NCBI GenBank assembly: GCA_965206075.1
Contig: CBDBIS010000001.1
Location: forward strand, 104,274-168,273
From: Alphaproteobacteria bacterium
GTDB lineage: Bacteria > Pseudomonadota > Alphaproteobacteria > Bin95
Direction of reading: 5' to 3'
Length of the DNA: 64,000 nt
Made by a program: the position numbers and the translations under genes
Shown: positions 9,579-41,320 of the stretch, one piece after another
Numbering within the stretch: position 1 is the stretch's first letter
Layout: every line of letters begins with the position of its first letter
Notes under the pieces: model-generated
Told to the model about the DNA's origin: nothing
What the model saw: only the letters and a program-made list of their open reading frames with translations
Database searches by the model: none

Positions 9579-9597
9579 AACTTTCGCGCATGCGGAA

Positions 9598-18918: not shown

Positions 18919-18927
18919 GCCGCAATT

Positions 18928-19838: not shown

Positions 19839-19857
19839 GTCCCGATGTGCGAGAGTC

Positions 19858-20783: not shown

Positions 20784-20807
20784 TGTCATGTTCTGTCATG
20801 TTCGCCA
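20784..20807 (-). promoter_or_regulatory. CATGACA heptad x2-3 (array 5 of 5), overlapping the recombinase stop codon
   Basis: Read on + strand as 'tgtcatgttc tgtcatgttc gccatg'. Confidence 0.4.
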
Positions 20808-22696: not shown

Positions 22697-22709
22697 GGTC
22701 CGGAATCTC

Positions 22710-23012
22710 CTATCGGTCGTGCGCCTCCTTCTCCGGCGCGTTGTCGTTGGCGGCCGTGAGCCCGTCGAACTCCTCGCGGGCGATCTGCCGCCCGATCAGC
22801 CGGGCGAGCCGCATGACGGCGGCATCGATCCGCGCTTCCGCTCCGCCGCCTGCCCCGTCCTGCCCTGCCGACTTGGAGGCCGGCACAGGCGGACCCGATC
22901 CGCGTGCCTCCGGGCCGTGATTGTCGTTCGCGGCCCCGCCGCTGCGGTTCGCGCGCCTGCGGTCTCCCCCGTTCCCCTGCATTGCCTCCGCCTTCTCCCG
23001 GACCTTGTCCAT
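22710..23012 (-). CDS. hypothetical small protein (100 aa) translationally coupled upstream of the serine recombinase
   Basis: Stop lies 13 nt before the recombinase ATG. C-terminal helical segment 'IDAAVMRLARLIGRQIAREEFDGL'. Middle is low-complexity. Confidence 0.35.
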   Translation of the reverse strand: MDKVREKAEAMQGNGGDRRRANRSGGAANDNHGPEARGSGPPVPASKSAGQDGAGGGAEARIDAAVMRLARLIGRQIAREEFDGLTAANDNAPEKEAHDR

Positions 23013-23177
23013 GGAGAAGGCATTTGAGGGCCGGCGCGAGCCCTGTCAAACGCGGTATGCCGGGGATTTCCTTTGCAATATCATAGCCTTGCGTACCCTT
23101 GTCGGTCCCTGCGGCGGCAGGCGCGGACAGGCGTACCCCGAGCGATATTTCGTCGCACAGCATGGTCGCGGCGCCTT

Positions 23178-23513
23178 TCAGTCCAGCACCCGGAGCGCGG
23201 TCTCCGGTGCCTTGTCGAGTACCCGCAGCAGGGCGCGCGCCGCCCCGGTCGGGCCGCGCTGGCCCTGTTCCCATTTGCGGATCGTGTCCGGCGGCACGCC
23301 GATGCGCCGCGCCATCTCCATCTGGGTGAGGCCCAGCCGCCGCCGCACCCGGCGCGCATAGCGCGCCATGTCCTGCATGGCTTCGGCCTCGTCCTCCCGC
23401 TGCTGAGCGGCAATGTCGGCCTCTGCGGTTGCGTCCACCGCCGAAGGGTCGATCCGCCCCTCGGGCAGGGTGGACGGGTCGGCGGGACCGGTCCCGATGC
23501 GCGTCGTGCTCAT
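23178..23513 (-). CDS. XRE-family HTH transcriptional regulator (antitoxin-like)
   Basis: HTH 'LGLTQMEMARRIGVPPDTIRKWEQGQRGPTGAARALLRVL'. Start placed at the internal ATG ('MSTTRIG'). Alternative longer start at 23603. Confidence 0.7.
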   Translation of the reverse strand: MSTTRIGTGPADPSTLPEGRIDPSAVDATAEADIAAQQREDEAEAMQDMARYARRVRRRLGLTQMEMARRIGVPPDTIRKWEQGQRGPTGAARALLRVLDKAPETALRVLD

Positions 23514-23804
23514 TCCATGCGGCCTCCCTTCCGGCGACCCCGAGCGGACCGCGAAATGCGCGCGTGGAACAGCCACCATCCTTCCGGGCCTGCATGGTCG
23601 CACATATAGCCCAATGGGCTATTGGTGTAAAGCCTGGAGGCGCAGTCCGAAGTCTGCAAGGGCTTCGGCGAAGCCGGACCACGGTCATTTGCCGGATCCG
23701 GGTTCATGAAAGCTGCCCCGCGCCACGCTGTCGGCTGCTCCATGCGGCGATGCAATGACCGCGCCGCTCGCGGCAGCCGGCCATCGATGGACCGTTCCCG
23801 GTCC

Positions 23805-26153
23805 CTACGTCTTCATGTGTCCGGGGAGATGGCCGATCACGACCTGCCGGTCCGCATCGTCCCAGGTGAAATAGAGGCGGAAGCAGTATCTCGGATCGCG
23901 GGTGTTCGAGGCCGTCTTCAGGTGCCGGTCGAGGGTCAGCCTGCGGCCGTTCCATTCGACGGTGAAATCGTCGCGCGCCTTGCCCTGGCGGTCGCGGCTT
24001 ATGCTGGGGGTCTCAAGCAGCCGCAGCGCGCGCAGTTCGGCGTCGAACGCCTCCCGCAGTTCCCTGCCGCCTTCGGTCTTCATCCGCCAGTAGGCGCTGC
24101 CGAGCAGTGCAATTGCCCCAGCCACCAGCGCCACATCCTCGAACTCGGCTCCCTTGAGCGCCCTGAGCGCGCGGCCCGCCAGCGCCACGCGTCCGCCGTA
24201 ATGCTGCGCCGCCCAATCCGGCAGCTCCGCATAGCTCGCCGGCGGCGGCACTGTCGGGTTCTCCGTCGCCGCCTCCAGCGGCGCGACGCCTTCCAGCACC
24301 GCGATCCGCTGCTGCAGGCGGCGCCTCTCGCGCCGCAGCCCGGCATTTTCCTCGCCGGCGCCGTCCACCTCCTGCGACAGCGCCGCGATCCGCTCCTCCG
24401 CCTGCCGGTTCGCCGCCTTCAAGTCGTCGATTTCAGCGCGCAGCACCCGCTCCCTCTCCTTCGGGCCCGGAAGCGTTTCGGTTTCCCCGCCGGTGTCCCG
24501 GCCCGCCATCGAGCCGAACGTTCCGACCAGCTCCCCCAGGCAGGCGCCGATGGCATCGAGCGCCGCCGCCGGCTCGCTCGACGGCGGCTCGGCGTTCACC
24601 GCCCCGGCCGCCGTCTGCAGGGCCTCCAGGTTCGCCGCGCTCGGAGTCTCTGCATAGCGGCGCGACGCCTCCTGGAGCGCCCGCTCCCGTTCCCCCGGCT
24701 CCACGATTTCCGCACGGAAGCGTTCCGCCAGTTCCCGGCAGCGCTCCCATTCGGGATCCGGAAAGCCGAGCGGCAGGGAGGCATCGGCCAGCAGCCCCGA
24801 GACACTGTCCTTCAGCCCATCCGCCCTTTCGGCGAACCGCGTCTCCGGCAACGCATCCAGCGTCTCCTGCAACAGCGCCCGCAACAATCCGTGCCGGCGC
24901 CGCGCTAGCGCCTCCTGGCGCGCGTCCTCCAGCTCCTCGACAGCACCGAACAGGGTTTCGACGTCGAACAGCAGGTATGACAACCTTTCTTCCGCCGCGC
25001 CGTAGTCCTCAAGCGCCGCGACATGCTCCTTCAGGCGGGCCCAGGCCTCGTCCATCTCCCTGCGCAGCGTCGCGGCCATGGCCTCCGCCCGCGCCGCCAG
25101 CCCTTCCAGCTGCGCCCCGGCGGGCTCGCCCAGCAACCGCTCGACCAGATTGCCGCGTTCGGGGTCCACGCCGAAACGCTGGCGGCGCAGGGCGTCCCCG
25201 ATCAGCGCCTCGATCCCGGGCTCCCCCAACCAGGGGGACGCGATCAGGCGGCCCTCCGGTCCTTCCAGGCAGGACAGCACCCAGATCGATTGCGCTACCA
25301 ACTCGACTTCGCGCGCCTGCCACAGCGTCTCCAGATCGTCCAGAATCGTCGCATCGCCGTTGCCCGGACCGAAGGGGCTGAGAGACTGCGCCCTCTCGCC
25401 GGCCGTCCTGAGCACCCGCGGGCCCAGCAGCTTCCGTTCGCCCTTCGCCTCGCCGAAGGTCTTCACGATCCGGTCCTCGAACAGCCACAGGAACCAGGTC
25501 CAGCGCTGCGCAAAGCCATGCACCGCACGCCAGAACGCCGCCTCGTCGGAGCCGTTGGCCTCGGCAGGCCAATCGGCGTGCTCCTGCGCCAGCCAGACCG
25601 CCAGCTTGCGCAGGTCGGCCCGCATCAGATGGTGGTTCTCCCGAAGCCAGTCCGGCGTTGCGAAGGCCGGAAGCGGCCCCCGCTCCGGCTGCTTCACCGT
25701 GCCGGCCGACGCCGGGCCGGCGCCTGCTTTCGATCCTCCCGGAATTGCCCGTCCCTCCATGACTTGCGGCCTTGCCCAAGCCGCGCCGAATGCCAAGCGC
25801 AGCCCCGTCCCGTCCCCAAAGAATGGATAGGGGCCGCGACAGCCGCAAGCCCTTCCGGAAACCCTCCCGCGGCGCGCTTGCGCGCCCGCTTCGAAATGCG
25901 AGGACGCAGAAGGCGGCGGGCAGCTACTGGCGCCTGCCGGCGCCCATCGCTGCGGCTTGCGGCGGTCCGGCCGCGCGGCGGCGATCACCTGGCGCACGAT
26001 CGTCTGCGGGAGCCGGACCTCCCGCGCAATCGCCGCCGGCCGGAGGCCGGCCTCACAGGCAGCCAGGATCAGCCGTTCCTGTCCCGGCGTCAGGGACGCC
26101 GCGCGGTCCGGCGCGGCGGGTTTCGGTCCTGCCGGCGTTGCGGGGCCGGACAT
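23805..26153 (-). CDS. hypothetical large protein: N-terminal sigma70-region-4/LuxR-like HTH, Pro/Ser linker, ~640-aa coiled-coil-containing domain of unknown function
   Basis: The 1476-aa ORF 23805..28235 was trimmed because its upstream part is antisense to the triple-CSD gene. HTH 'LTPGQERLILAACEAGLRPAAIAREVRLPQTIVRQVIAAA'. Coiled-coil 'RVLRAEIDDLKAANRQAEERIAALSQEV'. Conserved-looking C-terminus 'RYCFRLYFTWDDADRQVVIGHLPGH'. GC3 dips in the linker, so an alternative start is the ATG at ~25760 ('MEGRAIPGG'). Confidence 0.5.
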   Translation of the reverse strand: MSGPATPAGPKPAAPDRAASLTPGQERLILAACEAGLRPAAIAREVRLPQTIVRQVIAAARPDRRKPQRWAPAGASSCPPPSASSHFEAGAQARRGRVSGRACGCRGPYPFFGDGTGLRLAFGAAWARPQVMEGRAIPGGSKAGAGPASAGTVKQPERGPLPAFATPDWLRENHHLMRADLRKLAVWLAQEHADWPAEANGSDEAAFWRAVHGFAQRWTWFLWLFEDRIVKTFGEAKGERKLLGPRVLRTAGERAQSLSPFGPGNGDATILDDLETLWQAREVELVAQSIWVLSCLEGPEGRLIASPWLGEPGIEALIGDALRRQRFGVDPERGNLVERLLGEPAGAQLEGLAARAEAMAATLRREMDEAWARLKEHVAALEDYGAAEERLSYLLFDVETLFGAVEELEDARQEALARRRHGLLRALLQETLDALPETRFAERADGLKDSVSGLLADASLPLGFPDPEWERCRELAERFRAEIVEPGERERALQEASRRYAETPSAANLEALQTAAGAVNAEPPSSEPAAALDAIGACLGELVGTFGSMAGRDTGGETETLPGPKERERVLRAEIDDLKAANRQAEERIAALSQEVDGAGEENAGLRRERRRLQQRIAVLEGVAPLEAATENPTVPPPASYAELPDWAAQHYGGRVALAGRALRALKGAEFEDVALVAGAIALLGSAYWRMKTEGGRELREAFDAELRALRLLETPSISRDRQGKARDDFTVEWNGRRLTLDRHLKTASNTRDPRYCFRLYFTWDDADRQVVIGHLPGHMKT

Positions 26154-26504
26154 CCCTGCCCGCAGAGCGCGTGCAGCCGGGGGGCTGTCCGCTGCATTTC
26201 GTCCGCGCCGGCCGATTTCCGCGCTTACCGCCTTCGCCAAACGGTCGAGCTGTTCGTCGTCCAGCAGGCGCAGCGACCGTTCGAGGTCGGCCGGCAGGCC
26301 AAGGCGAGTCGTGCCCCGGACGTTGCATCCGGCGCCGGGCGCCACTCGTCTCCCATACCCCGATCCCGCGCCATCGTCCGCCTTCCTGTCCGCGCCATCC
26401 TGTCCCGTGCGCCCCTGCGCCCGCAAGGACTTCACCGCGCCCCTGGCGAAAGGTAGAAATGCCGTTCGATACCAACCTCCGTCATGAGGGGAAAGCCGTT
26501 CGAG

Positions 26505-27368
26505 ATGACAGCTCCTCTTCCGGGCTCCGGCGCCGGCATGTCCATTTCGGCTGCGGTCAAATGGTACGATCCGGGCAAGGGATACGGGTTCCTTCTGCCC
26601 GATGACGGCTCTCCGGACCTCTTCTGCCGGGCGCAGGTGCTGACGGCGGCGGGTCTCGACCGCCTTCTTCCCGGCGCGGCGGTCGTCTGCGAGACGGCGC
26701 CGGGCCTGCGCGGACCCGAGGTCTCGCGAATTCTGTCCATAGACTTTTCCACGGCGGCGGCGCGCATGGCATCCCCGGCCCGCGCGCCCGTCAACGGAGG
26801 GGCTGCCGCCGGACCCGGCGTCGGGCCGGTCGGCCCGCCGGTCCGCGCTTTCGTCAAATGGTTCCAGCCGGCCAAGGGTTACGGCTTCCTCGAACGCGAG
26901 GACGGCGCCGCCGACCTGTTCTGCCACCTGACGCCCGTGCTGGCGTCGGGCCACCAAACGCTGCCCGAGGGCGCGGCCGTGACCTGCGAGGTCGTGCAGG
27001 GCGACCGGGGACCGCAAGTGTCGAAAATCCTGTCGGTAGAGCCGCCCGCCGCCATGCCCGCCGGCCCCGGACCCCGATCCGGGGGCCCGATGGAGCCGGG
27101 CCACAGTCTCTTCGACGCCGGCAAGCCGGGCCCGCAGGCCGTCGGCGCGTCTTCGCCCGTCATGGAGCTGAAGGGCGCGATCAAGTTCTTCGATCCCGCC
27201 AGAGGCTTCGGCTTCGTCGTGCCGGACGACGGCGGTCCCGAGGTGTTCGTCCATGCCAGCACCCTGTTCCGCTCCGGCATGACCGACCTTGAGCCGGGGC
27301 AGCGCGTCATCGTGAGCGCGGAGCACGTCCCGCGCGGGCTCCAGGCGACACGCATAGAGCCGCTCTGA
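26505..27368 (+). CDS. triple cold-shock-domain (CspA-like x3) protein
   Basis: Three tandem CSDs: 'VKWYDPGKGYGFL', 'VKWFQPAKGYGFL', 'IKFFDPARGFGFV', each with RNP1/RNP2-like motifs. Shine-Dalgarno GAGGGGAAA before ATG 26505. Alternative start at 26538. Confidence 0.8.
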   Translation: MTAPLPGSGAGMSISAAVKWYDPGKGYGFLLPDDGSPDLFCRAQVLTAAGLDRLLPGAAVVCETAPGLRGPEVSRILSIDFSTAAARMASPARAPVNGGAAAGPGVGPVGPPVRAFVKWFQPAKGYGFLEREDGAADLFCHLTPVLASGHQTLPEGAAVTCEVVQGDRGPQVSKILSVEPPAAMPAGPGPRSGGPMEPGHSLFDAGKPGPQAVGASSPVMELKGAIKFFDPARGFGFVVPDDGGPEVFVHASTLFRSGMTDLEPGQRVIVSAEHVPRGLQATRIEPL

Positions 27369-27398
27369 ACGGGCCGTCCGCGACAGGCCGCAGCCGCA

Positions 27399-27692
27399 AT
27401 GGAGAACATCATGGATGAGCCGGACGCGCCGCAATCGGCATCCGCAGAGGAAGAGGCCCGGATCGGCGAAATGCCGGCGGTTTTCGTCAACAAGGTCTAT
27501 GTCACGCGCACGCCCGGCGGCGGCGCGAAAATCACGTTTGCCGAAGCGCGCCAGGCGCAGGGCGGGAGCCCGGCGTCGCCGCGCGCGGCGGTGTTCCTGC
27601 AATACGCCGATCTCGCCGCCCTGCGTCGCCTCCTGGACTGGACTGCAAGCCCCGATGAGCCGTCGCAGCGCTTCGGCGGCTCGATGCATTAG
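27399..27692 (+). CDS. hypothetical small protein (97 aa)
   Basis: GGAGAA Shine-Dalgarno. GC3-rich. No recognised domain. Confidence 0.4.
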   Translation: MENIMDEPDAPQSASAEEEARIGEMPAVFVNKVYVTRTPGGGAKITFAEARQAQGGSPASPRAAVFLQYADLAALRRLLDWTASPDEPSQRFGGSMH

Positions 27693-28024
27693 CCGCCGGG
27701 CCCGCCCCTCTTCCCCGAACGCGGGCGCCCTCGCGCCTCGTCGATCCGCGCCTTCAGCTTGTCCGACGCCCTGAGGACAACGACCCGCCGCGCGGCGATC
27801 GGCGCCGCCTCGCCGGTCCTCGGGTTGCGCCCGGTCCGCGCCACCTTGTCCCGCAGCGCGAAGACGGCAAACCCCGAAATCTTCACCTCCTCGCCACGGA
27901 CCAGCGCTTCGACGATCTCCTCGATCATGTCCTCGACCAGCCCGGCCGACGCCGCATGCGAGAGGCCGATCCGCATTTGCACCGCCCGATACAGATCGGC
28001 CCGCGTCACCGTCCTGCCGCTCAT
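27689..28024 (-). CDS. HU/IHF-family DNA-binding protein
   Basis: HU fold: 'LVEDMIEEIVEALVRGEEVKISGFAVFALRDKVARTGRNPRTGEAAPIAARRVVVLRASDKLKARI'. Confidence 0.85.
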   Translation of the reverse strand: MSGRTVTRADLYRAVQMRIGLSHAASAGLVEDMIEEIVEALVRGEEVKISGFAVFALRDKVARTGRNPRTGEAAPIAARRVVVLRASDKLKARIDEARGRPRSGKRGGPGG

Positions 28025-28336
28025 GCCATCGCACCCTCATCAAGCTCCGTCGATTGCCCCGGCCCGGAGCATGCCCGGCTGCGATGGATCGCCCCATGGA
28101 GGTAGCCGTCCCGTCTCCTGGCCGCAAGCGGGACAGGCCGGGGCAATGGGTCGTCATGCCCTCCGGCAGCCTTGCAGGTGACGGTCGGGAACCGCGTCCC
28201 GGCCGCCATTCGGACGTCGCCGCCACGCCTCGCACCTCCAGGAGGCCGAGGCTGGCCGGAAGCCGGGCGGCGGTCGGGTGTCCGGAGAGGGCGTCCGGGC
28301 GCCGCTCATCATCACCGGCAGGATGGAGACGGCACC

Positions 28337-28666
28337 ATGACGGCAGCGATGGCGATGCCCGGCAACACGGCGGACACCTTTTTGGTTCACTTCTTCGGCG
28401 GCGGTCTCGAAGGCGACGACCGTTTCGTGGTCGAGCGGTTCCGCGCTCTGGCCTGCGGCGATATCCGCCCGGTCCGGCCCGAGGCGGCGGGCAAGAAGAG
28501 CCGGCGCAAGGCGGAGCACATTGTCGTTTCGCGCAAGCAGGCCGAGGCGATGCGTCCCGAGCGCGCGGAGATCATCATCTGCACCGGGCTCAGCACCCGC
28601 GGCGGCGTACAGAAGTGGGGGGCGATCGCAACCTCACTCATGTGCGACCGCAAGCAGCGCGGCTGA
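28337..28666 (+). CDS. hypothetical small protein (109 aa)
   Basis: 'aggatggag' Shine-Dalgarno before the ATG ('MTAAMAMPGNTADTFLVHFFGGG...'). No recognised domain. Confidence 0.35.
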   Translation: MTAAMAMPGNTADTFLVHFFGGGLEGDDRFVVERFRALACGDIRPVRPEAAGKKSRRKAEHIVVSRKQAEAMRPERAEIIICTGLSTRGGVQKWGAIATSLMCDRKQRG

Positions 28667-28751
28667 GCAGCAACTTCCGGGGGACGTCCCGCCGGCGCAC
28701 CGTCGGCGGGACGTCCTCTTCCGGGATTCCGATTTCGATGGGGAGAATGTC

Positions 28752-29771
28752 GTGGCCTATCGAGACGTGGAAGTCAGGAAACAACGCGACCGCGAGCGGT
28801 TCGCGCGCCGGACGGCCGCCCGGATTGCGGCCGGCCAATGCCCGCGCTGCGGCGAGCGGCCTCCCACGCCGGACCGCTCGGTGTGCGAGCCGTGCGCGGC
28901 CGGGAGAAACCGCACGAGCCGGGCCCGCGACGCGCGGCTGCGCGCCGAGGGAAAACCCAGGCGGAACATGGAGCGCGCGCGCGAGTACGAGCGCGAGCGG
29001 TCACGCAGGGAACGAGCCGCGCGCCAGGCCGGGGGCATTTGCGCCCGTTGCGGCACGCGCCCGTCGGCGGAAGGCCGCTCGTCCTGCGAGCCCTGCCTTC
29101 AGAAGCGCCGCGCCGAAGACCGGGCGAAATACCGGGCCGGCAAGGAAGCCGGAAAGCCGTATGGCGGGGCCAATGCCGATGCAAAGCGGCGCGCCGGCCG
29201 GGCCAGGAGCAGGAAGCGCCAGAAGGCGCGGATCGAGGCCGGGCTCTGCATTCGCTGCGGCGCGCGCCCGCCGGTCGAGGGGGGAACCACCTGCTCGCCA
29301 TGCCGCGAAAAGCGCCAGCAGGCCGAGCGGCAGTTGTATGCCGAACGCCGGGCTGCCGGTTGCTGCACGCGCTGCGGCGGTCCGGTCCATGAAGGCCTGT
29401 CGCGCTGTGCGCGATGCGCCGCCATCGAGGAGGCCGGCCGTTGCCCCGAACGCAAGAACGCGCGCTCCCGAAAGCTCTACGCCGCCAGGAGGGCGCGGGG
29501 CGAATGCACATCCTGCGGAGCGCCCGCGCAGGGGGCCAGCAGGTGCGCCCCATGCGCGGAGAAGTCGTACCACCGCTCGGCGCATTTCAGGGGCATCCCG
29601 GTCTGGGATCCGCAGTATACGGTGATCGAGATCGAGACGGGCGCCGACCACGGCACCTATGACAGCATGGCCGACGTGGCGCTCTGCCTCGCCTTCGCCA
29701 AGCTCGACCGCGACCGGGTGGAGATCGTGACGGACGCCCCGGTCACCGCGCGGCTGACGGCGTGGGAATGA
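28752..29771 (+). CDS. tandem zinc-ribbon protein (five CxxCG-x9-12-CxxC repeats) with conserved C-terminal domain
   Basis: Five repeats read directly, e.g. 'CPRCGERPPTPDRSVCEPCAAGRNR', 'CARCGTRPSAEGRSSCEPCLQKRR', 'CIRCGARPPVEGGTTCSPCREKRQ', 'CTRCGGPVHEGLSRCARCAA', 'CTSCGAPAQGASRCAPCAEK', each followed by a basic stretch. GTG start with GGGGAGA Shine-Dalgarno. The ATG at 28521 is an alternative. Confidence 0.55.
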   Translation: MAYRDVEVRKQRDRERFARRTAARIAAGQCPRCGERPPTPDRSVCEPCAAGRNRTSRARDARLRAEGKPRRNMERAREYERERSRRERAARQAGGICARCGTRPSAEGRSSCEPCLQKRRAEDRAKYRAGKEAGKPYGGANADAKRRAGRARSRKRQKARIEAGLCIRCGARPPVEGGTTCSPCREKRQQAERQLYAERRAAGCCTRCGGPVHEGLSRCARCAAIEEAGRCPERKNARSRKLYAARRARGECTSCGAPAQGASRCAPCAEKSYHRSAHFRGIPVWDPQYTVIEIETGADHGTYDSMADVALCLAFAKLDRDRVEIVTDAPVTARLTAWE

Positions 29772-29901
29772 GCGGCGCCATGCGTGCCGGGGGCCGGGCG
29801 CCCGCCGGCCTCCTGCACGTGCCGCCGGCCCGCCGCCCGCCGGGATGCGTATCGCCGTCCCGCGGGCGGCAGATCCGAACCCGACGACAGGAGATCGACC
29901 G

Positions 29902-30153
29902 ATGACCGTCGACACGCTGCCCGACTGCCCCCGCTACTGTTTCGCGCCCATCGAGGACGCCGAGCTCGGGGTGCAGCAGATCCGCATATTCGTCGAGGGC
30001 CTGGACGCGGCCATCGGCACGTCGCTGGTCGTGCTGGGCATCGACGAGGCCATGGCGATGGCGGACAGGCTCAACCGTCCGCTCGGCTGGACGCGGGCGG
30101 GGTGGACCGCCTTCGCCGCGACATGCATCCGCGGGGCCAGCACCCCGGACTGA
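29902..30153 (+). CDS. hypothetical small protein (83 aa)
   Basis: AGGAGA Shine-Dalgarno before the ATG ('MTVDTLPDCPRYCFAPIEDAELG'). Confidence 0.45.
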   Translation: MTVDTLPDCPRYCFAPIEDAELGVQQIRIFVEGLDAAIGTSLVVLGIDEAMAMADRLNRPLGWTRAGWTAFAATCIRGASTPD

Positions 30154-30371
30154 CGCGCCGGCCACGCCGCGCGGTCGACGGGCTCCACCCGCGCGATGCC
30201 CGGCCTGCCATCCTGACGGCGCCACCGGCCCGCGCCTGTCGCGGGCGACCGCGTCCTGGGCCGAAGCTCCCGTCGAGGAGCCGGAGAGGAGCGCTTTGCG
30301 GGCGATCGCCCGGAGAGCGGAGGGAGCGGTTTCCCTCGAACGCGCCGGGCAGCGCAAAGGAGGCTCCGGCC

Positions 30372-30614
30372 ATGTTCGACCCCGACATCCATATCGACGT
30401 TCCCACCGGCGCCCTGCTCGCCGAGATCGGCATCGACCCCGCCGCTGCGAGCGAGGTCATCGCGGAAGACCGCGCCCTCCGCTGCCCCGACCGGGATCGG
30501 GTGCGTCTCGAGTGCGGCACCGCGTTCCTCGACGTCGCCATGCCGCACGGGACCACCCTGCGCGGGGCGACGGGCAGCATGGTCCCGGTCCCGGCGTACC
30601 GCCCCGCGAAATAG
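30372..30614 (+). CDS. hypothetical small protein (80 aa)
   Basis: AGGAGG Shine-Dalgarno before the ATG ('MFDPDIHIDVPTGALLAEIGIDP'). Confidence 0.45.
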   Translation: MFDPDIHIDVPTGALLAEIGIDPAAASEVIAEDRALRCPDRDRVRLECGTAFLDVAMPHGTTLRGATGSMVPVPAYRPAK

Positions 30615-30725
30615 AGGAGGAGGGAAGCCTGGAGAAGGTGAACGGCGGGGGGCCGGGGGGAGCGATCGTCCCGGTCTCCCGTCGTTCGCGAACCCATCGT
30701 CATGAACGAGACCTGAAGGAGCATC

Positions 30726-31202: not shown

Positions 31203-31227
31203 GCCGGTTCCCCTTCCTCCCAACTCA

Positions 31228-31256
31228 GGCGGCTGCTTCGGCAGTCGCCTTTTTTT
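31228..31256 (+). terminator. rho-independent terminator after ssb
   Basis: Hairpin GGCGGCTGC-ttcg-GCAGTCGCC followed by T7. Confidence 0.7.
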
Positions 31257-33374: not shown

Positions 33375-33458
33375 TGTTTGTTCCGTGTTCGCTGTGTATG
33401 CTCCAGAGCACCGCGCGCAACTCGCGCGCAACTCGCCCGGACACGGAACAAACACCGG
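33375..33458. promoter_or_regulatory. 16-bp perfect inverted repeat (GGTGTTTGTTCCGTGT / ACACGGAACAAACACC) flanking tandem 'GCGCGCAACTC' repeats; candidate oriT or operator upstream of mobC-like gene
   Basis: Read directly from the sequence. Located in an 850-bp non-coding stretch between the DUF2493 gene and the RHH gene. Confidence 0.4.
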
Positions 33459-33575
33459 ATCGCCGCCCGCGGTCACATAGGCCAATGGACCGGGAAATAG
33501 CCCATGGCCATCCGAAACCGACCGGCATTCCGCTCGCGGAGGGGCCGGTGGAAGGCTCGAACAGGGGAGGTAACG

Positions 33576-33917
33576 ATGGCGGTCAGGAGCTTCCAGCGCT
33601 CGATCCGGTTCACGAACAACGAGTGGGATGCCGTGGTCGAGGCCGCCGAGAAGGCCGGAATCGCGCCCGGCTCGTTCGTGCGCAAGGCCGCCGCGCGCGC
33701 CGCGGCCGACGATTTATATCTCTATGGCGGCGGCCTGACACCCGAATTGGCCGATCTGATCCAGCGGACCCACCGTGGCGTCCACCTGCTCACCTACCTG
33801 AAGCGGGAGGAGCTCGCCGGATCGGAAAGGGGAGCGCTCTTCGACCGGGCCGTCGAAGACGCCCGCGCCACCCAGATCAAGGCGCTCGGCGACGACCGCT
33901 CAAGCGAAGATTCGTAG
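33576..33917 (+). CDS. ribbon-helix-helix mobilization accessory protein (MobC-like)
   Basis: 'RSIRFTNNEWDAVVEAAEKAGIAPGSFVRKAA' matches the MobC/RHH relaxosome-accessory pattern. GGGGAGG Shine-Dalgarno before the internal ATG. Confidence 0.55.
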   Translation: MAVRSFQRSIRFTNNEWDAVVEAAEKAGIAPGSFVRKAAARAAADDLYLYGGGLTPELADLIQRTHRGVHLLTYLKREELAGSERGALFDRAVEDARATQIKALGDDRSSEDS

Positions 33918-34108
33918 CACCCTCGGCCTCCGGCGGGCGACGCCGGTCCCAGCCTTTTCCGCGGTGGTTGGCTCCAGGGTACCCCGCACCCGACCGGTTC
34001 GCCGAACCGATCAAAGGCGCCACGAAAGGCGCCGCCGCCGATCCCCGCCACGCTCATTCGACGCTTCGTCCGTCCGCCGGCAGCGTCATCTCATGCAACG
34101 ACGCACGC

Positions 34109-34420
34109 TCAGGCGACCCGTCTTCCGAACGGAACAAGGTCGATTTCGTCCTCGCGCTCGCGGGTCCGGGCGATGTCGTAGCCGGTCTGCATGCGCAACA
34201 GCGTGTCCATCGACACGCCGAATACCTTCTCGATCCTGAGCGCCATTTCGGGCGAGAGGCTCGCCCGCTCGTTGAGCAGCGCGGACAGCGCCGGGCGCGT
34301 GACCCCCAGCGCCGACGCGGCCCCGGTCACCGACAGGCCCATCGCCTCGACGATCTCGCTCTTCACGAACCCGCCCGGGTGGGCCGGGTTCTTCATCCGC
34401 AAACCCTGTGTCGTGCCCAT
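34109..34420 (-). CDS. higA: HigA-family antitoxin (XRE HTH)
   Basis: 'IVEAMGLSVTGAASALGVTRPALSALLNERASLSPEMALRIEKVFGVSMDTLLRMQTGYDI' is the HigA addiction-module antidote signature. Confidence 0.85.
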   Translation of the reverse strand: MGTTQGLRMKNPAHPGGFVKSEIVEAMGLSVTGAASALGVTRPALSALLNERASLSPEMALRIEKVFGVSMDTLLRMQTGYDIARTREREDEIDLVPFGRRVA

Positions 34421-34429
34421 CGCCGTCTC

Positions 34430-34720
34430 CTAGTGGTAATCCTCGTAGTCGAGGTCGACGATCTCGCCCTCGGCGCGGTCGATCCGGAAGGTGAGCCGCC
34501 AGTTCCCGGTCACCGTCAGGCTCCACACGCCCCTGCGGTTGCCGGTCAGCCGGTGCGCGTTCCAGCCCGGAACCGTCCGCAATTCGTCCTCGCGCTCCAT
34601 GTCCTGGAGGAACGACAGCATCCGCCGCAGCTTCGGCACGGCCGCGGGCGGGAGCGCCGCAGCATTGTCTTCCTCGATGAACCGGCGCAGCCCCCTGTGA
34701 ATCACGTTCCGAATCTTCAT
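34430..34720 (-). CDS. higB: HigB-family toxin (RelE/ParE superfamily, plasmid-maintenance killer)
   Basis: 'MKIRNVIHRGLRRFIEEDN...LRRMLSFLQDME...PGWNAHRLTGNRRGVWSLTVTGNWRLTF' fits the HigB pattern. Sits directly upstream of higA. Confidence 0.8.
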   Translation of the reverse strand: MKIRNVIHRGLRRFIEEDNAAALPPAAVPKLRRMLSFLQDMEREDELRTVPGWNAHRLTGNRRGVWSLTVTGNWRLTFRIDRAEGEIVDLDYEDYH

Positions 34721-34980
34721 GGCGGAAGCTATCGAAGAGACACGTCAAGCGTCAAGCGACGCAATACGATGCCATCCGGCAGCTGAAACCCCGGCCGGAG
34801 GCAACCGCATTTGCCGGCGATCCGCGACTGCGCGGCGCATCGTTCCGGCAGGAAACAAACGGCTTCGATTCGTGCGCGACTTGCAGAAGGGTACGTCGCC
34901 GGACATGGCGGCCGGGCCGGTGGCGCCGGCCGGAGCCCCACCGACATGTCCAGCGTCGGCGGTTCCCGACCAACCGGGGA

Positions 34981-37969
34981 TCACATCTCCATCTCGATCC
35001 CGCGCGATCCCCGGGACTTGTCCGGTTCGGCGGTCCGTTCTTGCTCCGGCGCCTTCTCCCGTTCCGGCTCCCGGCTCCTGTCGGCCGACTCGTCCCGGGT
35101 TCCGGCGGGCCGCTCCAGCAATGCCTCCAGCCCGCGCTCGCGTTCCTTCTCGCCGCCGCGCGTCTTCTCTTCCGCGAGCGCCTTCTCCGCCGCGCCGATC
35201 CCTTCGAGCGCCGATATCCGCTCGCCGGTCGCCGCCTCCAGGGTCTCGCGCAGTTCCTTCGCATCGTCGGTGACCAGCTCGGCGCTGTGCCGGGCCCGGC
35301 TGATCTCGACGTAGAAGCTCTTCTGCGTCGACAGTTTCGGGTGTTTCGCCTCCATCGCCGCGATCACGTTGTCGACCGTGCGCCCCTGAAACGCATGCAC
35401 GGTGGAAGCCCAGGCATGGTCGAGATGGCGGAGTTGGGGATCGTTCTTGCCGAGCTCCAGCATCCGCCCGTCGCCGAGCCGGAAGGCGACGCGGTCGCCC
35501 CGGACCCCGCATGACCTCCGCCGTATCGCTGTTCACCAAGCCCAGCCCGGTGTCGTTGCGGGTCCAGCGGATGCGGTCCCCGGCGCGCAGCTCCATCGAT
35601 TCCGTCCGGTAGACCTCGACCGCGCCGCGCTTCCCGCCGACCTGGCGCGGCCTCCAGGAGACGGATTGTCCGTCCGGCCCCTCCAGCATTACCGTGCCCT
35701 TCCGGTGATCGACCCCTGACACGCGGCGTTCGTCGCCCTTCGCGACGCCAAGGCTCTTGTAGTCGCGGTGGAAGGCGACGACGTCGCCGGGGGAATAGTT
35801 GCCTGCAACCGTCTTCTCGGCGCTGGTATAGCCGTGGGAGACCAGCCGTTCGGCCTCGAAGGCGGGGCCGCGGATGGCGCCGTCGCGGGCGAGGCGCTCG
35901 CGGATGTGGCCGTTAATCGCGGTGCGCAGCGCATGGCTCGGGGCCATCAGCCCGGTGTTCTCTCGCTCCCGTGGTGAGAGTTTCAGCCAGCGCGCGGCGG
36001 CCGCACCGGCAAGGTTGTCGGGATTGACCTCGGCGATGCGGTCGCCGAGCTTGCCGAAGGCCCTGCCGATTTCGCCCGCGAGGCTCGCGCGCACCGCCTC
36101 CTTCAGTTCGGCGTCCTTCTGGCGCAGGATCTCGTCCATCACCGCCGTCTTCATGCCGGCGGCCTGGAGCTGGGCGAAGGGCTTGCCGGCATCGACCGCG
36201 TCGAGCTGCTTCCGGTCGCCCACCAGCACCACGCGGGGGATGCGGATGGCGGCGGCGATTCTCAACAGGTCCCGGGCCTGGACGGTCGAGGCGAGGGAAC
36301 CCTCGTCGACCACCAGCACGGTCTTCCGGAATGCGGCGCGCATCTCCCGCGCGCCCTTCCGGGTCAGCCGACCCTCGGCAACGCCCGCATTGCGGGCGAG
36401 GAATCTTTGCAGGGTCTCGGTCTCGATCCCGGCTTCCGATGCAAGGGTGCGCGCCGCCGAGGCGGACGGCGCGACGCCGATCGTGCGGTATCCACTCTTC
36501 GCCGCGAGCTGCCGGGCGCGGGCGAGCATGGTGGTCTTGCCGGTGCCGGCATAGCCCTGCACGCCCACCACCCGGTCCTTGGAGGACAGGATCGTCTTGA
36601 CCGCCTCCTTCTGGCCCACGGTGAGGCGGCCGTTGTGCAGCAGCGGCCCGGCGATCCAGCTCCGCATGACGGGGCGCGCGGCGCCCCGGCCGCGTTCCAT
36701 CAGCGCGACGGTCTCCTTCTCGTCGGCGACGGCCTTGTCGGTGGTGAGCGACTCGCCCCATGCCGGCAGGCCGCAGGGATGCAGCGTGCCCTCCTTCTCC
36801 AGCCGTGCGACTGCGGCCTCGGCTTCTCCGATGGTCACCGATCCCGGTTTCCACGCCAGCGCGGCGGCGAGCAGGTCGGTCTTCGCGAACACCGCCTCGC
36901 GTTCGGACAGGTGCTCCACCGCCCAGGCCATGGCGGCATCCGCCGGGGATTGCGGCGGAGGATCGAACAGGTCGCCCTGGCGAGCCGCCGACCCGTCAGA
37001 TGCACCGTTCCTGCCAACCCCGCGATCCTTTCCCGGAGCGTCCTGGCTCTTCTCTACCGCATCGGCCGCGAGCGCCCTGGCGTCGAACCCGAGCCCGTCC
37101 GCCTGGCGCTGCCACATCTCCCGCAGTTCGGCACGGTCGACGTCGCGCTTCGCCGCCCGGGTCATCAGCGCCGCGCGCTGGGCGGCGCGCTGGTTCTCCG
37201 CCGGCGTCCCCAGGCCGCGCCCGTCCATCGCCGCCTCGATCTCCGCGCGGCGGGTGGAAAAGGCGTCGATGATTTCGCGGGAAACGCCCGCGATCTCGAA
37301 CCGCCCGTCGGCATGGGCCTTTTCGATGCCGTAGCCGAGCGAGGTCAGCTCCCGCGCGAGCTCGCCCCGGTAGAGCGCGCCGATCAGCATCTTCGAGGAA
37401 TACAGCTTCTCGTTGGCCATGGTGCGCCACTTGCCGTCTTCGCCCTGCACCATGTTGGCGATCACCGCGTGGGTGTGGAGCTGCGGGTCGAGATTGCGCG
37501 AGGTCTCGTGGGTGAAGGTGGCGATCACCGCCTTCTGGTCCCCGGCGCGGACCATGCGACCGCCGTCGGGATGCTTCATCCGGGTCTCGATCACCCGTTC
37601 CTCGACCCAGGCAAGCGTTCGCTCCACCGCCCGGCCGTGGGCCTCCGCGACGCGGGCGTCGCCGCCGACCAGCGCGGCGAGGGAGATGGATTTCGGGGCC
37701 GACAGGGTGAGGTCGCGGCCGGGACGGTGGACGATCTCCCCGTCCTTGCCGGGGCGCCCGAGCTGCGGCCCGTCCGGAACCCGGCCCTCGAGGATCGCGG
37801 TGAAGACGTCCGGATCGACCGGGCCGGACAGGCCGAGCGCGTCGGCGCCCTTGCCCGTCCAGGCGCTGGCGGCGCGATGATCGGGATCGTCCCTGGCGTA
37901 ATAGCCGTCCCGTTCGTAGTAGCTGACGCCCTGGGATGGCGCGGCGATGGCGCCGATCGAGGCGACCAT
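34981..37969 (-). pseudogene. traA: conjugative relaxase TraA (MobF/TrwC relaxase + RecD-like helicase), interrupted by a +1 frameshift in a G-run near 35497
   Basis: N-terminal TrwC relaxase ('YYERDGYY', 'HETSRNLDPQLHTHAVIAN'). Helicase Walker A 'GYAGTGKTT', 'VLVVDEGSLA', 'VLVGDRKQL'. Frame A ends in junk after 'NSDTAEVM'. The true C-terminus ('RVRGDRVAFRLGDGRMLELGKNDPQLRHLDHAWASTVHAFQGRTVDNVIAA...') continues in ORF 34981..35463. Deleting one G in 'atgcggggtcc' restores the frame. Confidence 0.8.
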
Positions 37970-38766
37970 CAGAAGAATTGCTGGCCCAGCTCGCGCCTGG
38001 GCACGATCGCCTCGCCCTCGGCCGGCTCTTCGGCCTCCGTCGTGTCCGGCCGGCTTTCTGGATCGGCGGGGGCCGGGTTCGCCGGAACCGCGACACCGGC
38101 GCTCCGGGCGCTTTCCGCCGACGGCAGGCCCGGCGCTTCCGTCCGCTCCAACAGCTCGCCGTCGGTCACCATAGGCTTCGCGCCGTCCGGCTCCGGGAGG
38201 TCGATGAATCCTGGACGTCGCCTGCCGCCGAGCAACGTCAGGAGGCGTTCGAGCTCCGCCGGAGACACCACCAGCAGCGCGACCCGCGCGCGCAGGCCGG
38301 GACGGACCCACTCGGCGACGCGCCCCGCCGGCCCCGGTGCCGCCAAATGCCGATGGGGATATTCCACCGGCTCCAGCGCCGTCCCGGACCGGCCGCGCCG
38401 CCCATGGCCCGCGGCCCCGAGCAGCATCAGGCAGAACACCGTCCCGCCGGCGCCGGCGCCCAGCATGACGCCGTCTCCGATCGCCGCCAGGATGCGCCGC
38501 CGCGCCTCCACCGCCGACGGGAATTGGGCAACCGCCGCTCGAATGATGTTCCAGACGTCGCCGTCCGCCCTGCGGTATGCAACGGTCGTGTACTCGCTGA
38601 AACCGACGGCCAGCATGGCCTCCGCAACCGTCAGCTTCCGGGCCGCGTACCAGTCATGACCGGCGGTCCCACGCGCCAGCAGGATGACCGGCGCCGCCAG
38701 CGTCATTGCGGCGACGCCGAGCAGCCCCAGCCGGATCATGCGGCGCGGCCATCGCGCGCCCGACAT
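37969..38766 (-). CDS. hypothetical membrane protein (265 aa) upstream of and overlapping the traA start
   Basis: Two to three predicted TM segments ('IRLGLLGVAAMTLAAPVILLA', 'TVFCLMLLGAAG'). Stop overlaps the traA ATG (TGATG). Confidence 0.5.
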   Translation of the reverse strand: MSGARWPRRMIRLGLLGVAAMTLAAPVILLARGTAGHDWYAARKLTVAEAMLAVGFSEYTTVAYRRADGDVWNIIRAAVAQFPSAVEARRRILAAIGDGVMLGAGAGGTVFCLMLLGAAGHGRRGRSGTALEPVEYPHRHLAAPGPAGRVAEWVRPGLRARVALLVVSPAELERLLTLLGGRRRPGFIDLPEPDGAKPMVTDGELLERTEAPGLPSAESARSAGVAVPANPAPADPESRPDTTEAEEPAEGEAIVPRRELGQQFF

Positions 38767-38799
38767 GTCAACCGGCCCAGGGGCCGGAGACGCCCGAAC

Positions 38800-39534
38800 T
38801 CACGGCGATGCCTGAGGAGCGGCCACGCGCCTGCGCGGACGGCAGCGCCCGGCGTCCCACGCGTCCAGATCCGTCTCCCGGTAACGCACGCAGCCCCCGA
38901 GACGGTAGTACCGCGGCCCGGCCCCGGTGCACCGGTAGGTATCGAGGGTGCGCGGGGAAAGCCCCAGCCGCTCCGCCGCCTCGCGGGTGTCGACATATGC
39001 CGAGTCTTCGCCGCAGGGCGGCGGCATCCCGTCCTCGGAGCCGTTCGCCGGAGAACGGGCAGGGGGTTCCGGCGGCAGTTTGGCGCCGGTCAGGAAGCGC
39101 GGCATCGCGCCGGTCCGGGCGCGAATCTGCCGCCATTCCCCGGCGCTCGCGTGAGACGCCATCCAGGTGCGCACGTCCCTCACGGTCGCCAGGGTGGGCG
39201 ACAGGCCCTTGCGCAGCTGCGCGACGAAGGACGGATTGCCCGTCGCCCCGAAACCGAGCATGGAGCGCTTGATTCCGGTCACCGCGAGGAAGGCCTCGAC
39301 CTCCTCAAGGAAAGTCGGGCCGGCCGGTGGCTCGCCCATGACGGCGAGCACGCTGTCCACCGTCCTGAGCCGGGGATTGCGGCCGCCGCGCAGCGAGGGG
39401 ACGAAGTCCCGGTCGCGCAGCGCAACCGCGCCCAGCGCCCCGGCGCTCATGCCGTTACGCGAACACCAGGCCTCGATCGCCTGTCGAAATCGGGCAACCA
39501 GACTACCGGTCGGGACTGCGTCCATGGCGTTCAT
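38800..39534 (-). CDS. HTH_17 (excisionase/MerR-type) DNA-binding protein
   Basis: C-terminal 'YVDTREAAERLGLSPRTLDTYRCTGAGPRYYRLGGCVRYRETDLDAW' fits the excisionase-type HTH pattern. Start at internal ATG 'MNAMDAV'. Confidence 0.6.
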   Translation of the reverse strand: MNAMDAVPTGSLVARFRQAIEAWCSRNGMSAGALGAVALRDRDFVPSLRGGRNPRLRTVDSVLAVMGEPPAGPTFLEEVEAFLAVTGIKRSMLGFGATGNPSFVAQLRKGLSPTLATVRDVRTWMASHASAGEWRQIRARTGAMPRFLTGAKLPPEPPARSPANGSEDGMPPPCGEDSAYVDTREAAERLGLSPRTLDTYRCTGAGPRYYRLGGCVRYRETDLDAWDAGRCRPRRRVAAPQASP

Positions 39535-39581
39535 GCAGGAAAAGATAGGGGACGCGGAAGGCCCCGCAAGCCGGTTTCGGT

Positions 39582-40154
39582 ATGGGAATTCCGGCGGTTC
39601 GCAGTCCTGGCCTTGCGAGGCTCCGCAAGGCGCCGCAGGGCGGCAATTTTTTTGTAGGGTGTGCTGCACTCGACGTGGCGACGGGCGCGGTCATCGCACG
39701 GTGCAAGAAGCGGCACCGGGCCCGCGAGTTCCGTGCCTTCCTGGACGAGGTGGAGCGGAACGTGCCCACCGACCTCGACGTCCATGTCGTCATGGACAAC
39801 GCATCGAGCCACAAGACCAAGTCGATCCGCGACCGGTTCGCCGAGCGTCCGCGCTGGCATCCGCACTTCACCCCGACCTCCGCCTCATGGCTCAACCAGG
39901 TCGAGCGCTTTTTCGCTCTCCTGACCGAATGGCAGATCAAGCGCGGTGTCCACCGCTCCACCGCCGACCTTGAAGCCGCCATCGGGCGCCATATCGAAAC
40001 TTGTAACCGCGAGCCCAGACCCTTCCGATGGACAAAGTCCGCAGACGACATCCTCGCCTCCATCGAACGGTTCTGCCGCAGAACCCTCAACATCCACAGC
40101 AAAACTGCGTGGAAACTTCCGAATCAGGACACTAGTCATATGGAACTGAAGTAG
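39582..40154 (+). pseudogene. IS630-family transposase, 5'-truncated remnant (DDE domain only)
   Basis: Aligns to the C-terminal 190 aa of the full IS630 transposase at 40196..41305 ('DVHVVMDNASSHKT...[16 protein letters not shown]...[12 protein letters not shown]'). Lacks the N-terminal HTH. Confidence 0.75.
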
Positions 40155-41320
40155 ATTTCATTATAAATGGCCTCCGGCATTGGACGCTGGAGGGTTTGGC
40201 GATGGCGCGTGGTTCGGGTCGGCCGGTAGCGGCGGTGGTTCTGAGCGATGAAGAGCGGTCTTTTCTTGAGCGCCAGGCGCGACGCCGCCGGGTGGCACGC
40301 TCGATGTCGGAGCGTTGCCGCATGATCCTGCGTTGCGCCGACGGCCCGGCGAACAAGGTGGTTGCTGCGGAGCTTGGCGTGCACGAGCACACGGTCGGCA
40401 AGTGGCGCCGCCGCTTCGTGAAGGCACGCCTTCACGGCCTGTCGGACGAGCCTCGGCCGGGCCGGCCGCGCAGCCTGACGGACGACAAGGTGGCCGAGGT
40501 CATCGAGCGGACACTCCATACGACCCCGCCGGACGCCACCCATTGGTCGATCCGCTCGATGGGCAGGGAGACCGGGCTGTCGCACACGACGATCCGGCGC
40601 ATCTGGACGGCGTTTGGATTGCAGCCGCATCGGGCGCAGACGTTCAAGCTCTCCAGCGATCCGCTGTTCGTGGACAGGGTCCGCGACATCGTCGGGCTCT
40701 ATCTCTCGCCGCCGGACCGCGCCCTGGTGCTTTGTGTCGATGAGAAGAGCCAGATCCAGGCGCTCGACCGCACGCAGCCTGTCCTGCCGATGCTGCCGGG
40801 CATGCCCGAACGACGCACACACGACTACAAGCGGCACGGCACCACCTCGCTGTTTGCCGCCCTCGATGTCGCCACCGGCTTCGTCATCGGCAAATGCTAC
40901 CGGCGCCACAGGGCCAGGGAGTTCCTCGACTTCCTGAAGCAGATCGACCGCTGTGTTCCCGTAGGCCTCGACGTCCACATCGTCATGGACAACTACGCCA
41001 CCCACAAGACCGCGGCGGTCAGGGCATGGCTGGCGCGAAGGCCGCACTGGCATGTCCACTTCACGCCGACCTCAGCCTCCTGGATCAATCAGGTCGAGCG
41101 ATGGTTCGCTGAACTGACGCGCAAGCAACTGCAGCGCGGCGTGCATAACTCGACCCATAAACTCGAAGCCGACATTCGCGCCTTCATCGACAAGCACAAC
41201 CAAGACCCAAAGCCCTTCAAATGGACCAAGTCAGCCGACGATATCCTCGCCGCCGTCAAACGATTCTGCCTCCGCGTCGAACAAAACCTATGCCACGAAC
41301 TTTAGATTCACGTGACTAGG
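40155..41320 (+). mobile_element. IS630-family insertion sequence (boundaries approximate)
   Basis: Carries a complete 369-aa IS630/Tc1-mariner transposase. Abuts the truncated IS630 remnant. Terminal inverted repeats not resolved by eye. Confidence 0.6.
40196..41305 (+). CDS. IS630-family transposase (complete)
   Basis: N-terminal HTH ('[36 protein letters not shown]') and DDE domain ('[12 protein letters not shown]...[13 protein letters not shown]...[16 protein letters not shown]'). Confidence 0.9.

Follow-up and report, generated by a model that had tools for sequence, protein, structure and literature searches.

What kind of mobile element occupies the block of DNA between the molybdate transport gene modA and a pair of IS630-family insertion sequences (IS) in the Alphaproteobacteria bacterium assembly GCA_965206075.1, where does it begin and end, and can this copy still move? 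We analysed 64,000 nucleotides of contig CBDBIS010000001.1 (positions 104,274 to 168,273; hereafter the window, with positions counted from its first letter). Related loci are cited by number (L003 and so on). The block, recognisable from 21036 to ~39650 (18.6 kb), is probably a copy of a widespread alphaproteobacterial family of relaxase-bearing integrative and mobilizable elements (IMEs; iMOB), found in Rhodospirillales-like metagenome-assembled genomes. Since the window is ~70% G+C, genes were called by codon-position composition and then checked with Pfam. Major features are listed in Table 1.

Kind of element

The element has its own integrase, a relaxase and a candidate origin of transfer (oriT), and no mating machinery is found in the window. 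No domain of a type IV secretion system (T4SS) or type IV coupling protein (T4CP) is detected by Pfam in any called gene of the 64 kb, which bears out the absence of VirB/Tra genes reported in an initial annotation made from the sequence alone. The complete T4SS and coupling protein by which an integrative and conjugative element (ICE) is defined are present neither here nor in the flanks of relatives that were read. The same annotation had proposed an IME without mating-pair genes, and this proposal is now backed by an empty site in L003, a sharp junction at the recombinase end and a T4SS-free backbone in relatives. All of the gene content that it listed is present by Pfam, but its inventory left out a 630-amino-acid (aa) HEC-07-like gene at 23805-25697.

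The relaxase-bearing IME is a category already known; the family itself is undescribed yet abundant. MOBF IMEs and, separately, five serine-recombinase IMEs are known from Mesorhizobium (PMC8627217), and the iMOB class has a precedent in bioRxiv 10.64898/2026.01.13.699239.

A prophage identity was considered and dropped: structural genes are absent, and PHROGs matches are limited to the cold-shock domain (CSD) and YAcAr proteins. Viral sequence collections gave no useful match.

Insertion site and left junction

The left boundary is set by relatives and by the empty site of L003, and it falls inside the 3' end of the open reading frame (ORF) of a large serine recombinase (LSR). On the minus strand, the family-conserved ...GTGTTTGCAAGGGCGCG stops at 21036 and the flank, AAAAAAGCCCCCG..., runs from 21035 downwards. 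L024, whose LSR is 93% identical, matches the window DNA down to 21036 and no further. The window, L023, L024, L109 and the Paracoccus versutus pBEN locus L108 form a 'GGGCGCG' subgroup (n=5) with ...TTGC(A/G)(A/G)GGGC(G/A)CG in common, after which all differ. An A-run was tried as the common core and rejected because L024 lacks it. The initial annotation had started the block at 22697, one base outside the LSR gene (20786-22696), and had missed the junction at 21035/21036 too. It had also suggested that attachment (att) sites be defined by comparison with relatives; this succeeded on the left, and on the right the junction was not found.

Window 21027-20891 is collinear with L003 8758-8900, and window 19841-18900 with L003 9870-10817. 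In L003 the arrangement of a conserved leader followed by modA is uninterrupted and contains zero element genes; upstream of the leader there is a YggS-like gene together with AT-rich, promoter-like DNA. A second, inverted copy of the leader in the window, at 8578-8718, is likewise without a recombinase. Because the leader occurs without a recombinase in both places, everything left of 21036 is taken as chromosomal DNA. Relative to L003, the block is thus read as an insertion into the conserved leader upstream of modABC. Between modA and the LSR gene there is ~1 kb of repeat-rich non-coding DNA (19.8-20.8 kb). The ModA relatives come from bins that carry no label other than 'Alphaproteobacteria bacterium'. 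They keep synteny on the left side of modA; upstream of modA they all differ, and the leader is retained in L003 only.

The leader is a GC-rich sequence of ~140 nt with a predicted multi-stem fold, and the element sits at its 5' edge. Four copies were seen: window 8578-8718 and 20896-21035 (inverted), L003 8758-8900 and L023 11656-11865. The next gene is an unrelated one in three of the four, namely a 209-aa ORF, a TerS-like gene ahead of modA and a TbpB_B_D-like gene; after the window copy at 20896-21035 comes repeat-rich non-coding DNA instead. No Rfam family matches the leader, which may be an undescribed cis-regulatory RNA. A gene with an N-terminal Terminase_2 (small terminase) domain lies between leader and modA in L003 (8974-9897) and is partial in L002, L004, L005 and L014. 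Boxes containing TGTCATG occur upstream of modA (19808-19847, 20259-20281 and 20780-20809) and, inverted, at 9492-9608, upstream of a gene for an HTH_17 + PBP_like regulator (9727-10620); they may form a molybdate-responsive operator. The regions at 8.6-9.6 kb and 19.8-21.0 kb are inverted paralogues.

Integration module

LSR homologues are numerous, with 7330 at E<=1e-30 among 8000 candidates scored. Residues 1 to ~552 of the window protein (21040-22696) are conserved in the family, and the last ~84 codons run into the flanking chromosomal DNA. Conservation among the homologues reaches ...MSVSVxAxAR (residue ~552); past it their tails, of 8 to ~190 residues, diverge wholly. The region of the catalytic serine, YARYSSDQQ, aligns with the TP901-1 integrase, and the domain architecture is kept across 15 aligned homologues.

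Directly upstream, a small ORF matches 69-78-aa ORFs of L024 and L105 by tblastn. In L023, L109 and L112, ORFs of similar size (68-78 aa) occupy the same spot, a correspondence of position only. The small ORF has no family match in Pfam, NCBIfam or PHROG searches and is a candidate regulator or directionality factor. Together with an XRE-type regulator, it forms an XRE-small ORF-LSR trio kept in L023, L024 and L109. DNA homology of the integration module with L024 stops at 23623-23634.

Transfer module and its backbone

The relaxase loci of L020, L021/22, L106, L110 and L111 keep one gene order: HTH_17, 256-aa protein, relaxase, a cargo slot, ribbon-helix-helix (RHH) protein, YAcAr, (DUF4326), single-stranded DNA-binding protein (SSB), small ORFs, zinc ribbon and 109-aa protein. 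In none of them, where the contig reaches, does the relaxase have a T4SS or T4CP gene 8-10 kb or less away. Relaxase homologues with 90-95% identity occur in many contigs of uncultured alphaproteobacteria. The relaxase matches TraI/TrwC structures (PDB, E 1e-59 to 1e-72), to which its motifs YYERDGYY and LHTHAVIAN align. A plasmid origin was considered and dropped: no near-identical plasmid DNA was found, and the best plasmid MobF protein is only 40% identical to the relaxase.

The HTH_17 protein, 82% identical in L020, is encoded by the first gene of the HTH_17-256aa-relaxase operon. For the 256-aa protein, none of 122 homologues has a Pfam domain, and an AlphaFold2 (AF2) model built from 30 homologues has a confidence (pLDDT) of 43 and is unusable. 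The RHH protein is 81-86% identical in L020/L021; it had been called MobC-like, but its matches, which are weak, are to NikA-like and MobA-like families and not to MobC.

Between the YAcAr and RHH genes there is ~930 bp of non-coding DNA. It contains a nic-like motif, GTGCGGATTGTGT/TACG, at 33333-33349 and a short hairpin at 33304-33330. The region is conserved in L020, L021 and L106, with CGGATTGTGT.ACG invariant even in the divergent L106. The motif has a single match in the window, and by itself is not statistically rare. An inverted repeat (IR), also conserved in relatives, has 20-nt arms at 33372-33391 and 33438-33457 that are 95% complementary, and the fold of its region beats 200 of 200 shuffles (z -3.9). 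A candidate oriT had been placed on an IR at 33375-33458; that repeat is present and folds well, but the likeliest nic site is the TrwC-type motif, ~25 nt upstream of it, with the nick predicted between 33345 and 33346. The IR is more likely to be a site for an accessory protein than the nic hairpin. The nic region of R388, which we take to be GGTGCGTATTGTCT/ATAGC, is similar to the GTGCGGATTGTGT/TA of the window.

The backbone from 28337 to 30614 has homologues in L020-L022 with the order kept. Homologues of the LSR adjoin those of the 109-aa and zinc-ribbon proteins in L026, L027 and L043, in the order and orientation of the window, and in L105 an LSR homologue adjoins SSB and YAcAr. Because LSR homologues thus stand beside genes that are also found in relaxase loci, the LSR and relaxase modules are bridged. 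L105 and L106 are on the same 2.93-Mb contig, with the LSR and relaxase loci ~39 kb apart. Two contigs carry both LSR and relaxase homologues, and neither yielded a complete relative bounded at both ends.

From this gene content, the recombinase would be controlled by the XRE protein and the small ORF and would cut the element out as a circle. The relaxase, with the RHH protein, would nick oriT and be passed to the coupling protein and T4SS of a helper. The SSB and other backbone proteins would shield the incoming strand, and the recombinase would then put the element back into the chromosome.

Table 1. Features of the element and its immediate surroundings, with window positions
Feature	Position	Strand	Evidence or remarks
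MFS_MOT1 (left-flank molybdate gene)	15946-17124		Gene call, Pfam
modCBA (left-flank molybdate genes)	17144-19827	-	Gene calls, Pfam
LSR ORF	20786-22696	-	636 aa; Pfam Resolvase, Recombinase, Zn_ribbon_recom
Left (LSR-proximal) junction	21029..21049	.	Break at 21035/21036, inside 3' end of LSR ORF
Small ORF	22710-23012	-	100 aa; 13 nt upstream of LSR start
XRE/MqsA-like HTH regulator	23178-23603	-	Pfam HTH_31/HTH_3
HEC-07-like candidate anti-phage defence protein (cargo)	23805-25697	-	630 aa, coiled-coil; PADLOC HEC-07 E 1.4e-57, residues 416-630
Three-CSD protein (variable segment)	26484-27368	+	Pfam CSD x3
97-aa ORF (variable segment)	27399-27692	+
HU (variable segment)	27689-28024	-	Pfam Bac_DNA_binding
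109-aa protein (backbone)	28337-28666	+
Cys-rich zinc-ribbon protein (backbone)	28752-29771	+
Two small ORFs (backbone)	29902-30153, 30372-30614	+
SSB	30726-31202	+	Pfam SSB E 1.5e-22
YAcAr/SLOG (formerly DUF2493)	31725-32648	+	Pfam PF10686 E 5.5e-23
Candidate oriT, non-coding	33100-33576	+	Nic-like motif, short hairpin, large IR
RHH relaxosome accessory protein (NikA/MobA-like)	33576-33917	+	Weak: Pfam NikA-like 8.8e-5, NCBIfam MobA 0.004
higA (cargo)	34109-34420	-	Pfam HTH_3
higB (cargo)	34430-34720	-	Pfam HigB-like_toxin
MOBF relaxase-helicase gene	34981-37969	-	Pfam TrwC 1.8e-85, AAA_30; frameshifted
256-aa protein	37969-38739	-	Two hydrophobic helices (hydropathy); stop overlaps relaxase start
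HTH_17 (excisionase-type fold) DNA-binding protein	38800-39450	-	Pfam HTH_17 7.7e-9; weak TIGR01764 excisionase match
Backbone end	39626-39657	.	GC hairpin and T7 run (39644-39650), then ~8 nt of other DNA
5'-truncated IS630-family fragment	~39658-40135	+	DDE_3; transposase residues 221-361, 62% identity, first 220 codons gone
Complete IS630-family element	40132-41319	+	21-nt terminal inverted repeats; Pfam DDE_3, HTH_32; directly follows fragment

Probable decay and the right end

The relaxase gene contains a 1-nt insertion near 35506-35512, in a short stretch that is variable in the DNA alignment. By tblastn with three intact homologues (P0001, P0005 and P0009), residues 1-823 are in frame at 37969-35513 and residues 826-999 lie in another frame at 35505-34984. 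As a result of the insertion, the UvrD_C_2 part (relatives' residues 826-999) is out of frame and a spurious ORF of 1074/1188 aa appears. The C-terminal superfamily 1B (SF1B) helicase is not wholly in frame: AAA_30 is present, and the frameshift falls ahead of the last helicase motifs. The TrwC relaxase/helicase of the initial annotation therefore keeps its domains, but the 1188-aa ORF is a frameshift artefact and the ancestral gene runs from 37969 to 34981. Because its relaxase is frameshifted, the present copy may no longer be mobilizable, and it is probably immobilised in its genome.

At the right end, the A/T run is where L020, L021/22 and L111 cease to be homologous to the window. Beyond it the relatives carry SNF2/DUF1156, AbiE or an IS, and here the IS630 fragment follows. 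The boundary at 39650 could be either the true end of the element or a hot spot for cargo, and the IS630 copies probably lie outside the original element. The block had been described as ending in two IS630 copies. Both are present, but the first is truncated, and they abut the point where the backbone stops and do not form an att-type end.

A palindrome resembling repetitive extragenic palindromic (REP) sequences, GTCGCCCCGGCCCCCGAGCCGGGGCC, occurs at 20032-20057, 20135-20160, 41607-41632 and 41679-41704. These copies, which flank the element on both sides, are the only ones in the 64 kb, where 0 would be expected by chance; partial copies are at 20328-20367, 20441-20463 and 20661-20687. To the right of the complete IS630, the stretch 41320-41600 is low in GC (~55-60%) and has only short ORFs without a family match.

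Alternative explanations

Several observations weigh against a single IME copy with a defined left end that has decayed in place. In L023, L024, L109 and L112 (the last on a 5.68-Mb contig) the 10 kb upstream of the LSR module contain no relaxase, nor do the 20 kb upstream of it in L108, and in L106 the relaxase module is near a tyrosine integrase, beyond its cargo. The modules are thus also found apart, and their linkage is modular and not obligatory. The block might then be two unrelated neighbours: a serine-recombinase island with defence cargo (~21036-28200) and a mobilizable module that arrived independently (~28200-39650). The quite different cargo of the trio in those loci would suit such an origin. 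We nevertheless consider it very unlikely, in view of the LSR homologues that stand beside 109-aa and zinc-ribbon genes or beside SSB and YAcAr, and because neither an att-like junction nor a second integrase separates the two parts in the window. The right att site is a further difficulty. In the window, an inverted copy of the LSR-side arm has its best matches at chance level, and neither the other half of an L003-type or paralogous target, nor the tRNA-Met 3' half, nor the flank common to L024 and L109 is found; a comparison of the two ends for inverted similarity does no better than chance, as 11% of random 30-mers score equally. On the left, ~200 nt past the junction are common to the window and L023 in different gene contexts, and L024 and L109 have a different flank in common over at least 160 nt, so some of this DNA may be element-borne and the true end may lie further out. 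We read these common flanks as repeated regulatory DNA serving as targets, because the leader occurs without an LSR in L003 and at 8.5 kb; an element-borne tail is the alternative.

Since a LuxR-like gene near 42.7 kb has a frameshift too, that of the relaxase may be an assembly error. In that case the element could be intact and still mobilizable, with attR past the IS630 copies, or unrecognisable since serine-recombinase att sites have little sequence in common. This is unlikely, in our judgement, although a fair amount speaks for it: the backbone genes other than the relaxase are full length compared with relatives, the LSR is intact across its conserved domains, and the related contigs resemble long-read assemblies, one of them with a poly-G artefact. 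However, the extra base is in a short variable stretch with no long homopolymer, the backbone abuts a truncated IS630, and the database matches include the LSR of this same contig but no identical relaxase ORF, which fits annotation of the latter as a pseudogene. The block could otherwise be what is left of an ICE, its T4SS and coupling-protein genes having been lost on the right side in a deletion associated with IS630. The backbone does stop exactly at the start of the 5'-truncated IS630, the right att was not found, and the closest plasmid MOBF relaxases usually adjoin a T4CP gene. Yet in the relatives read, neither T4SS nor T4CP genes occur in the 8-10 kb on each side of the relaxase, as far as the contig extends, it is the gene for the 256-aa membrane protein and not one for a T4CP that is coupled to the relaxase, and past the same boundary relatives carry defence cargo or an IS but no conjugation genes. 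A degraded ICE is accordingly an improbable source. We retain the reading of one relaxase-bearing IME copy with a decayed relaxase.

A proposed recombinase clade that mimics tRNA-Met(CAT)

In most relatives of the LSR, ...TCGGTxTCGGTG is followed by GTTGCGGGGGCAGGATTTGAACCTGCGACCTTCAGGTTATGAG, the reverse complement of the 3' half of the tRNA-Met(CAT) gene, and the LSR stop codon sits, antisense, in the anticodon loop. The tail VAGxGFEPxTxxL, a translation of the antisense tRNA, ends 79 of the 120 closest homologue clusters. Among 60 assessable metagenome loci, 13 have a complete tRNA-Met(CAT) at most 200 nt from the LSR end. In L105, on the 2.93-Mb NCBI contig, the LSR gene (10001-11707) overlaps a complete tRNA-Met(CAT) by 44 nt. 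Past this tRNA come a 5S-like sequence (read by eye), ~3.3 kb without called genes, tRNA-Ala and tRNA-Ile, which we take to be an rRNA operon at this, the sole locus read that far. A complete tRNA-Met(CAT) on the opposite strand, overlapping the LSR 3' end or at most ~110 nt from it, is found in L105 and likewise in L035, L036, L039, L058, L085, L086, L090, L093, L095, L098, L103 and L104.

By sequence the window LSR is a member of this clade, being 47-93% identical to members that abut or overlap tRNA-Met(CAT). Its tRNA mimic is reduced to TTTGCAAGGGCGCG, which matches GTTGCGGGGGCAGG at 10 of 14 nt. ARAGORN predicts no tRNA genes in the 64-kb window, and no tRNA-Met fragments are found in it. 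With only a degenerate 14-nt remnant and no tRNA, the arrangement typical of the clade is therefore lacking here. A degenerate mimic at a non-tRNA site is likewise seen in L023, L024, L109 and L108.

We propose, tentatively and with a little more doubt than confidence, that these recombinases form a large and seemingly undescribed serine integrase clade whose att site is within its own coding 3' end. The ~15 last codons would run antisense to the T-arm and the anticodon arm in tRNA-Met(CAT), and integration would rebuild the tRNA. The window copy would belong to a derived subgroup whose mimic has decayed to 14 nt and which now inserts at other sites, here the 5' edge of the leader. In the literature we found no description of such a 3'-end tRNA-Met mimic and one serine-recombinase prophage at tRNA-Met, vB_PamS_Pami6 of Paracoccus, which is reported to integrate in tRNA-Met(CAT) (PMC6536676).

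Cargo and conserved genes

The 630-aa protein of the first cargo position belongs to no Pfam, NCBIfam or PHROG family. The variable segment that follows (26484-28024) is not in the relatives L020-L022. The SSB gene is kept in L020-L022, L105 and L106, and the YAcAr/SLOG protein is 81-82% identical in L020/L021. The slot that holds higBA in the window is filled by other cargo in relatives.

Cargo slots of relatives hold mostly defence-type genes: SNF2 with DUF1156, AbiE, type I restriction-modification with PIN/FitA, SIR2_2 with DUF4020, DUF6361 with a helicase, and DruA. They are at 1-8207 in L020, 6269-8261 in L021/L022, 926-8406 in L106, 13030-16584 in L110, 1-3224 in L024 and 8627-9508 in L112.

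Comparison with known systems

The closest description is that of the Mesorhizobium MOBF IMEs (IMEMlR88B-like; PMC8627217). Like the window element, they are alphaproteobacterial islands that combine a recombinase of their own with an oriT and a MOBF relaxase plus accessory gene; their cargo varies, and mating-pair genes are absent. Unlike it, they have a Ti-like traA-traC-traD locus with a gene for a recombination directionality factor (RDF) located downstream of traA, and they use mostly tRNA, radC or guaA sites and mostly tyrosine integrases (PMC8627217). In the window, by contrast, a TrwC/TraI-like relaxase follows HTH_17 and 256-aa membrane protein genes, and a cargo slot splits the relaxase from the RHH gene and oriT. 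The relaxase resembles TrwC of R388 and TraI of F in that an SF1B helicase comes after an N-terminal HUH domain that has YY-x5-YY and HxH motifs. In contrast to the R388 and F systems, neither a TrwB-type coupling protein nor a T4SS adjoins it, the element that carries it is integrated and not plasmid-borne, and the C-terminal part of the helicase is out of frame.

The LSR shares Resolvase, recombinase and zinc-ribbon domains with TP901-1, phiC31, Bxb1 and TnpX/TndX, and its gene is likewise at the end of the element, by the att site. The targets known for classical serine integrases are protein-coding or intergenic. In the clade described here, unlike in these, att is inside the 3' coding end of the recombinase, mostly antisense to the 3' half of tRNA-Met(CAT). 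The prophage vB_PamS_Pami6 is similar by description, as it is alphaproteobacterial and its serine recombinase is reported to integrate into tRNA-Met(CAT) (PMC6536676); it is however a prophage, whereas the window element is a mobilizable island. The best phage matches to the window LSR are only 38-42% identical.

Flanking regions

Farther to the left, a group II intron occupies 6650-8550 (Rfam domains D1-D4 at 6753-7040 and D5/D6 at 8473-8545), with a reverse transcriptase/maturase ORF at 7076-8464. It sits just past a promoter-proximal hairpin (~6630-6665) and ends ~30 nt before the second leader copy. The right flank contains the LuxR-like gene, exopolysaccharide genes and a giant adhesin-like ORF, and at 0.72-0.75 its GC content is above that of the left flank. 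The LuxR-family gene (41885-43034) has its N-terminal part in one frame and its GerE helix-turn-helix (42768-43034) in another. The giant ORF, downstream of the exopolysaccharide cluster, is open from 55386 to 64000 (>2870 aa) with a G+C content at third codon positions (GC3) of 0.95; cadherin, Calx-beta, fn3 and Ig-like repeats are found in the first 1538 residues scanned.

Significance

At the locus itself the consequence is modest: the insertion parts modABC and the leader from the upstream promoter region present in L003. IMEs are held to be roughly as frequent as ICEs, and descriptions are sparse outside Firmicutes and a few pathogens. The locus is an example of an IME family that is abundant among uncultured alphaproteobacteria, with a conserved MOBF/oriT/SSB/YAcAr backbone and slots mostly for anti-phage cargo. 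The main interest of the element is the tRNA-Met mimicry of its integrase clade and the apparent retargeting of a subgroup, which, if true, would be a natural case of a serine integrase switching its target. A clade with a tRNA-Met mimic and a subgroup that has moved off the tRNA would offer natural material on how specificity changes, of relevance to genome-engineering tools.

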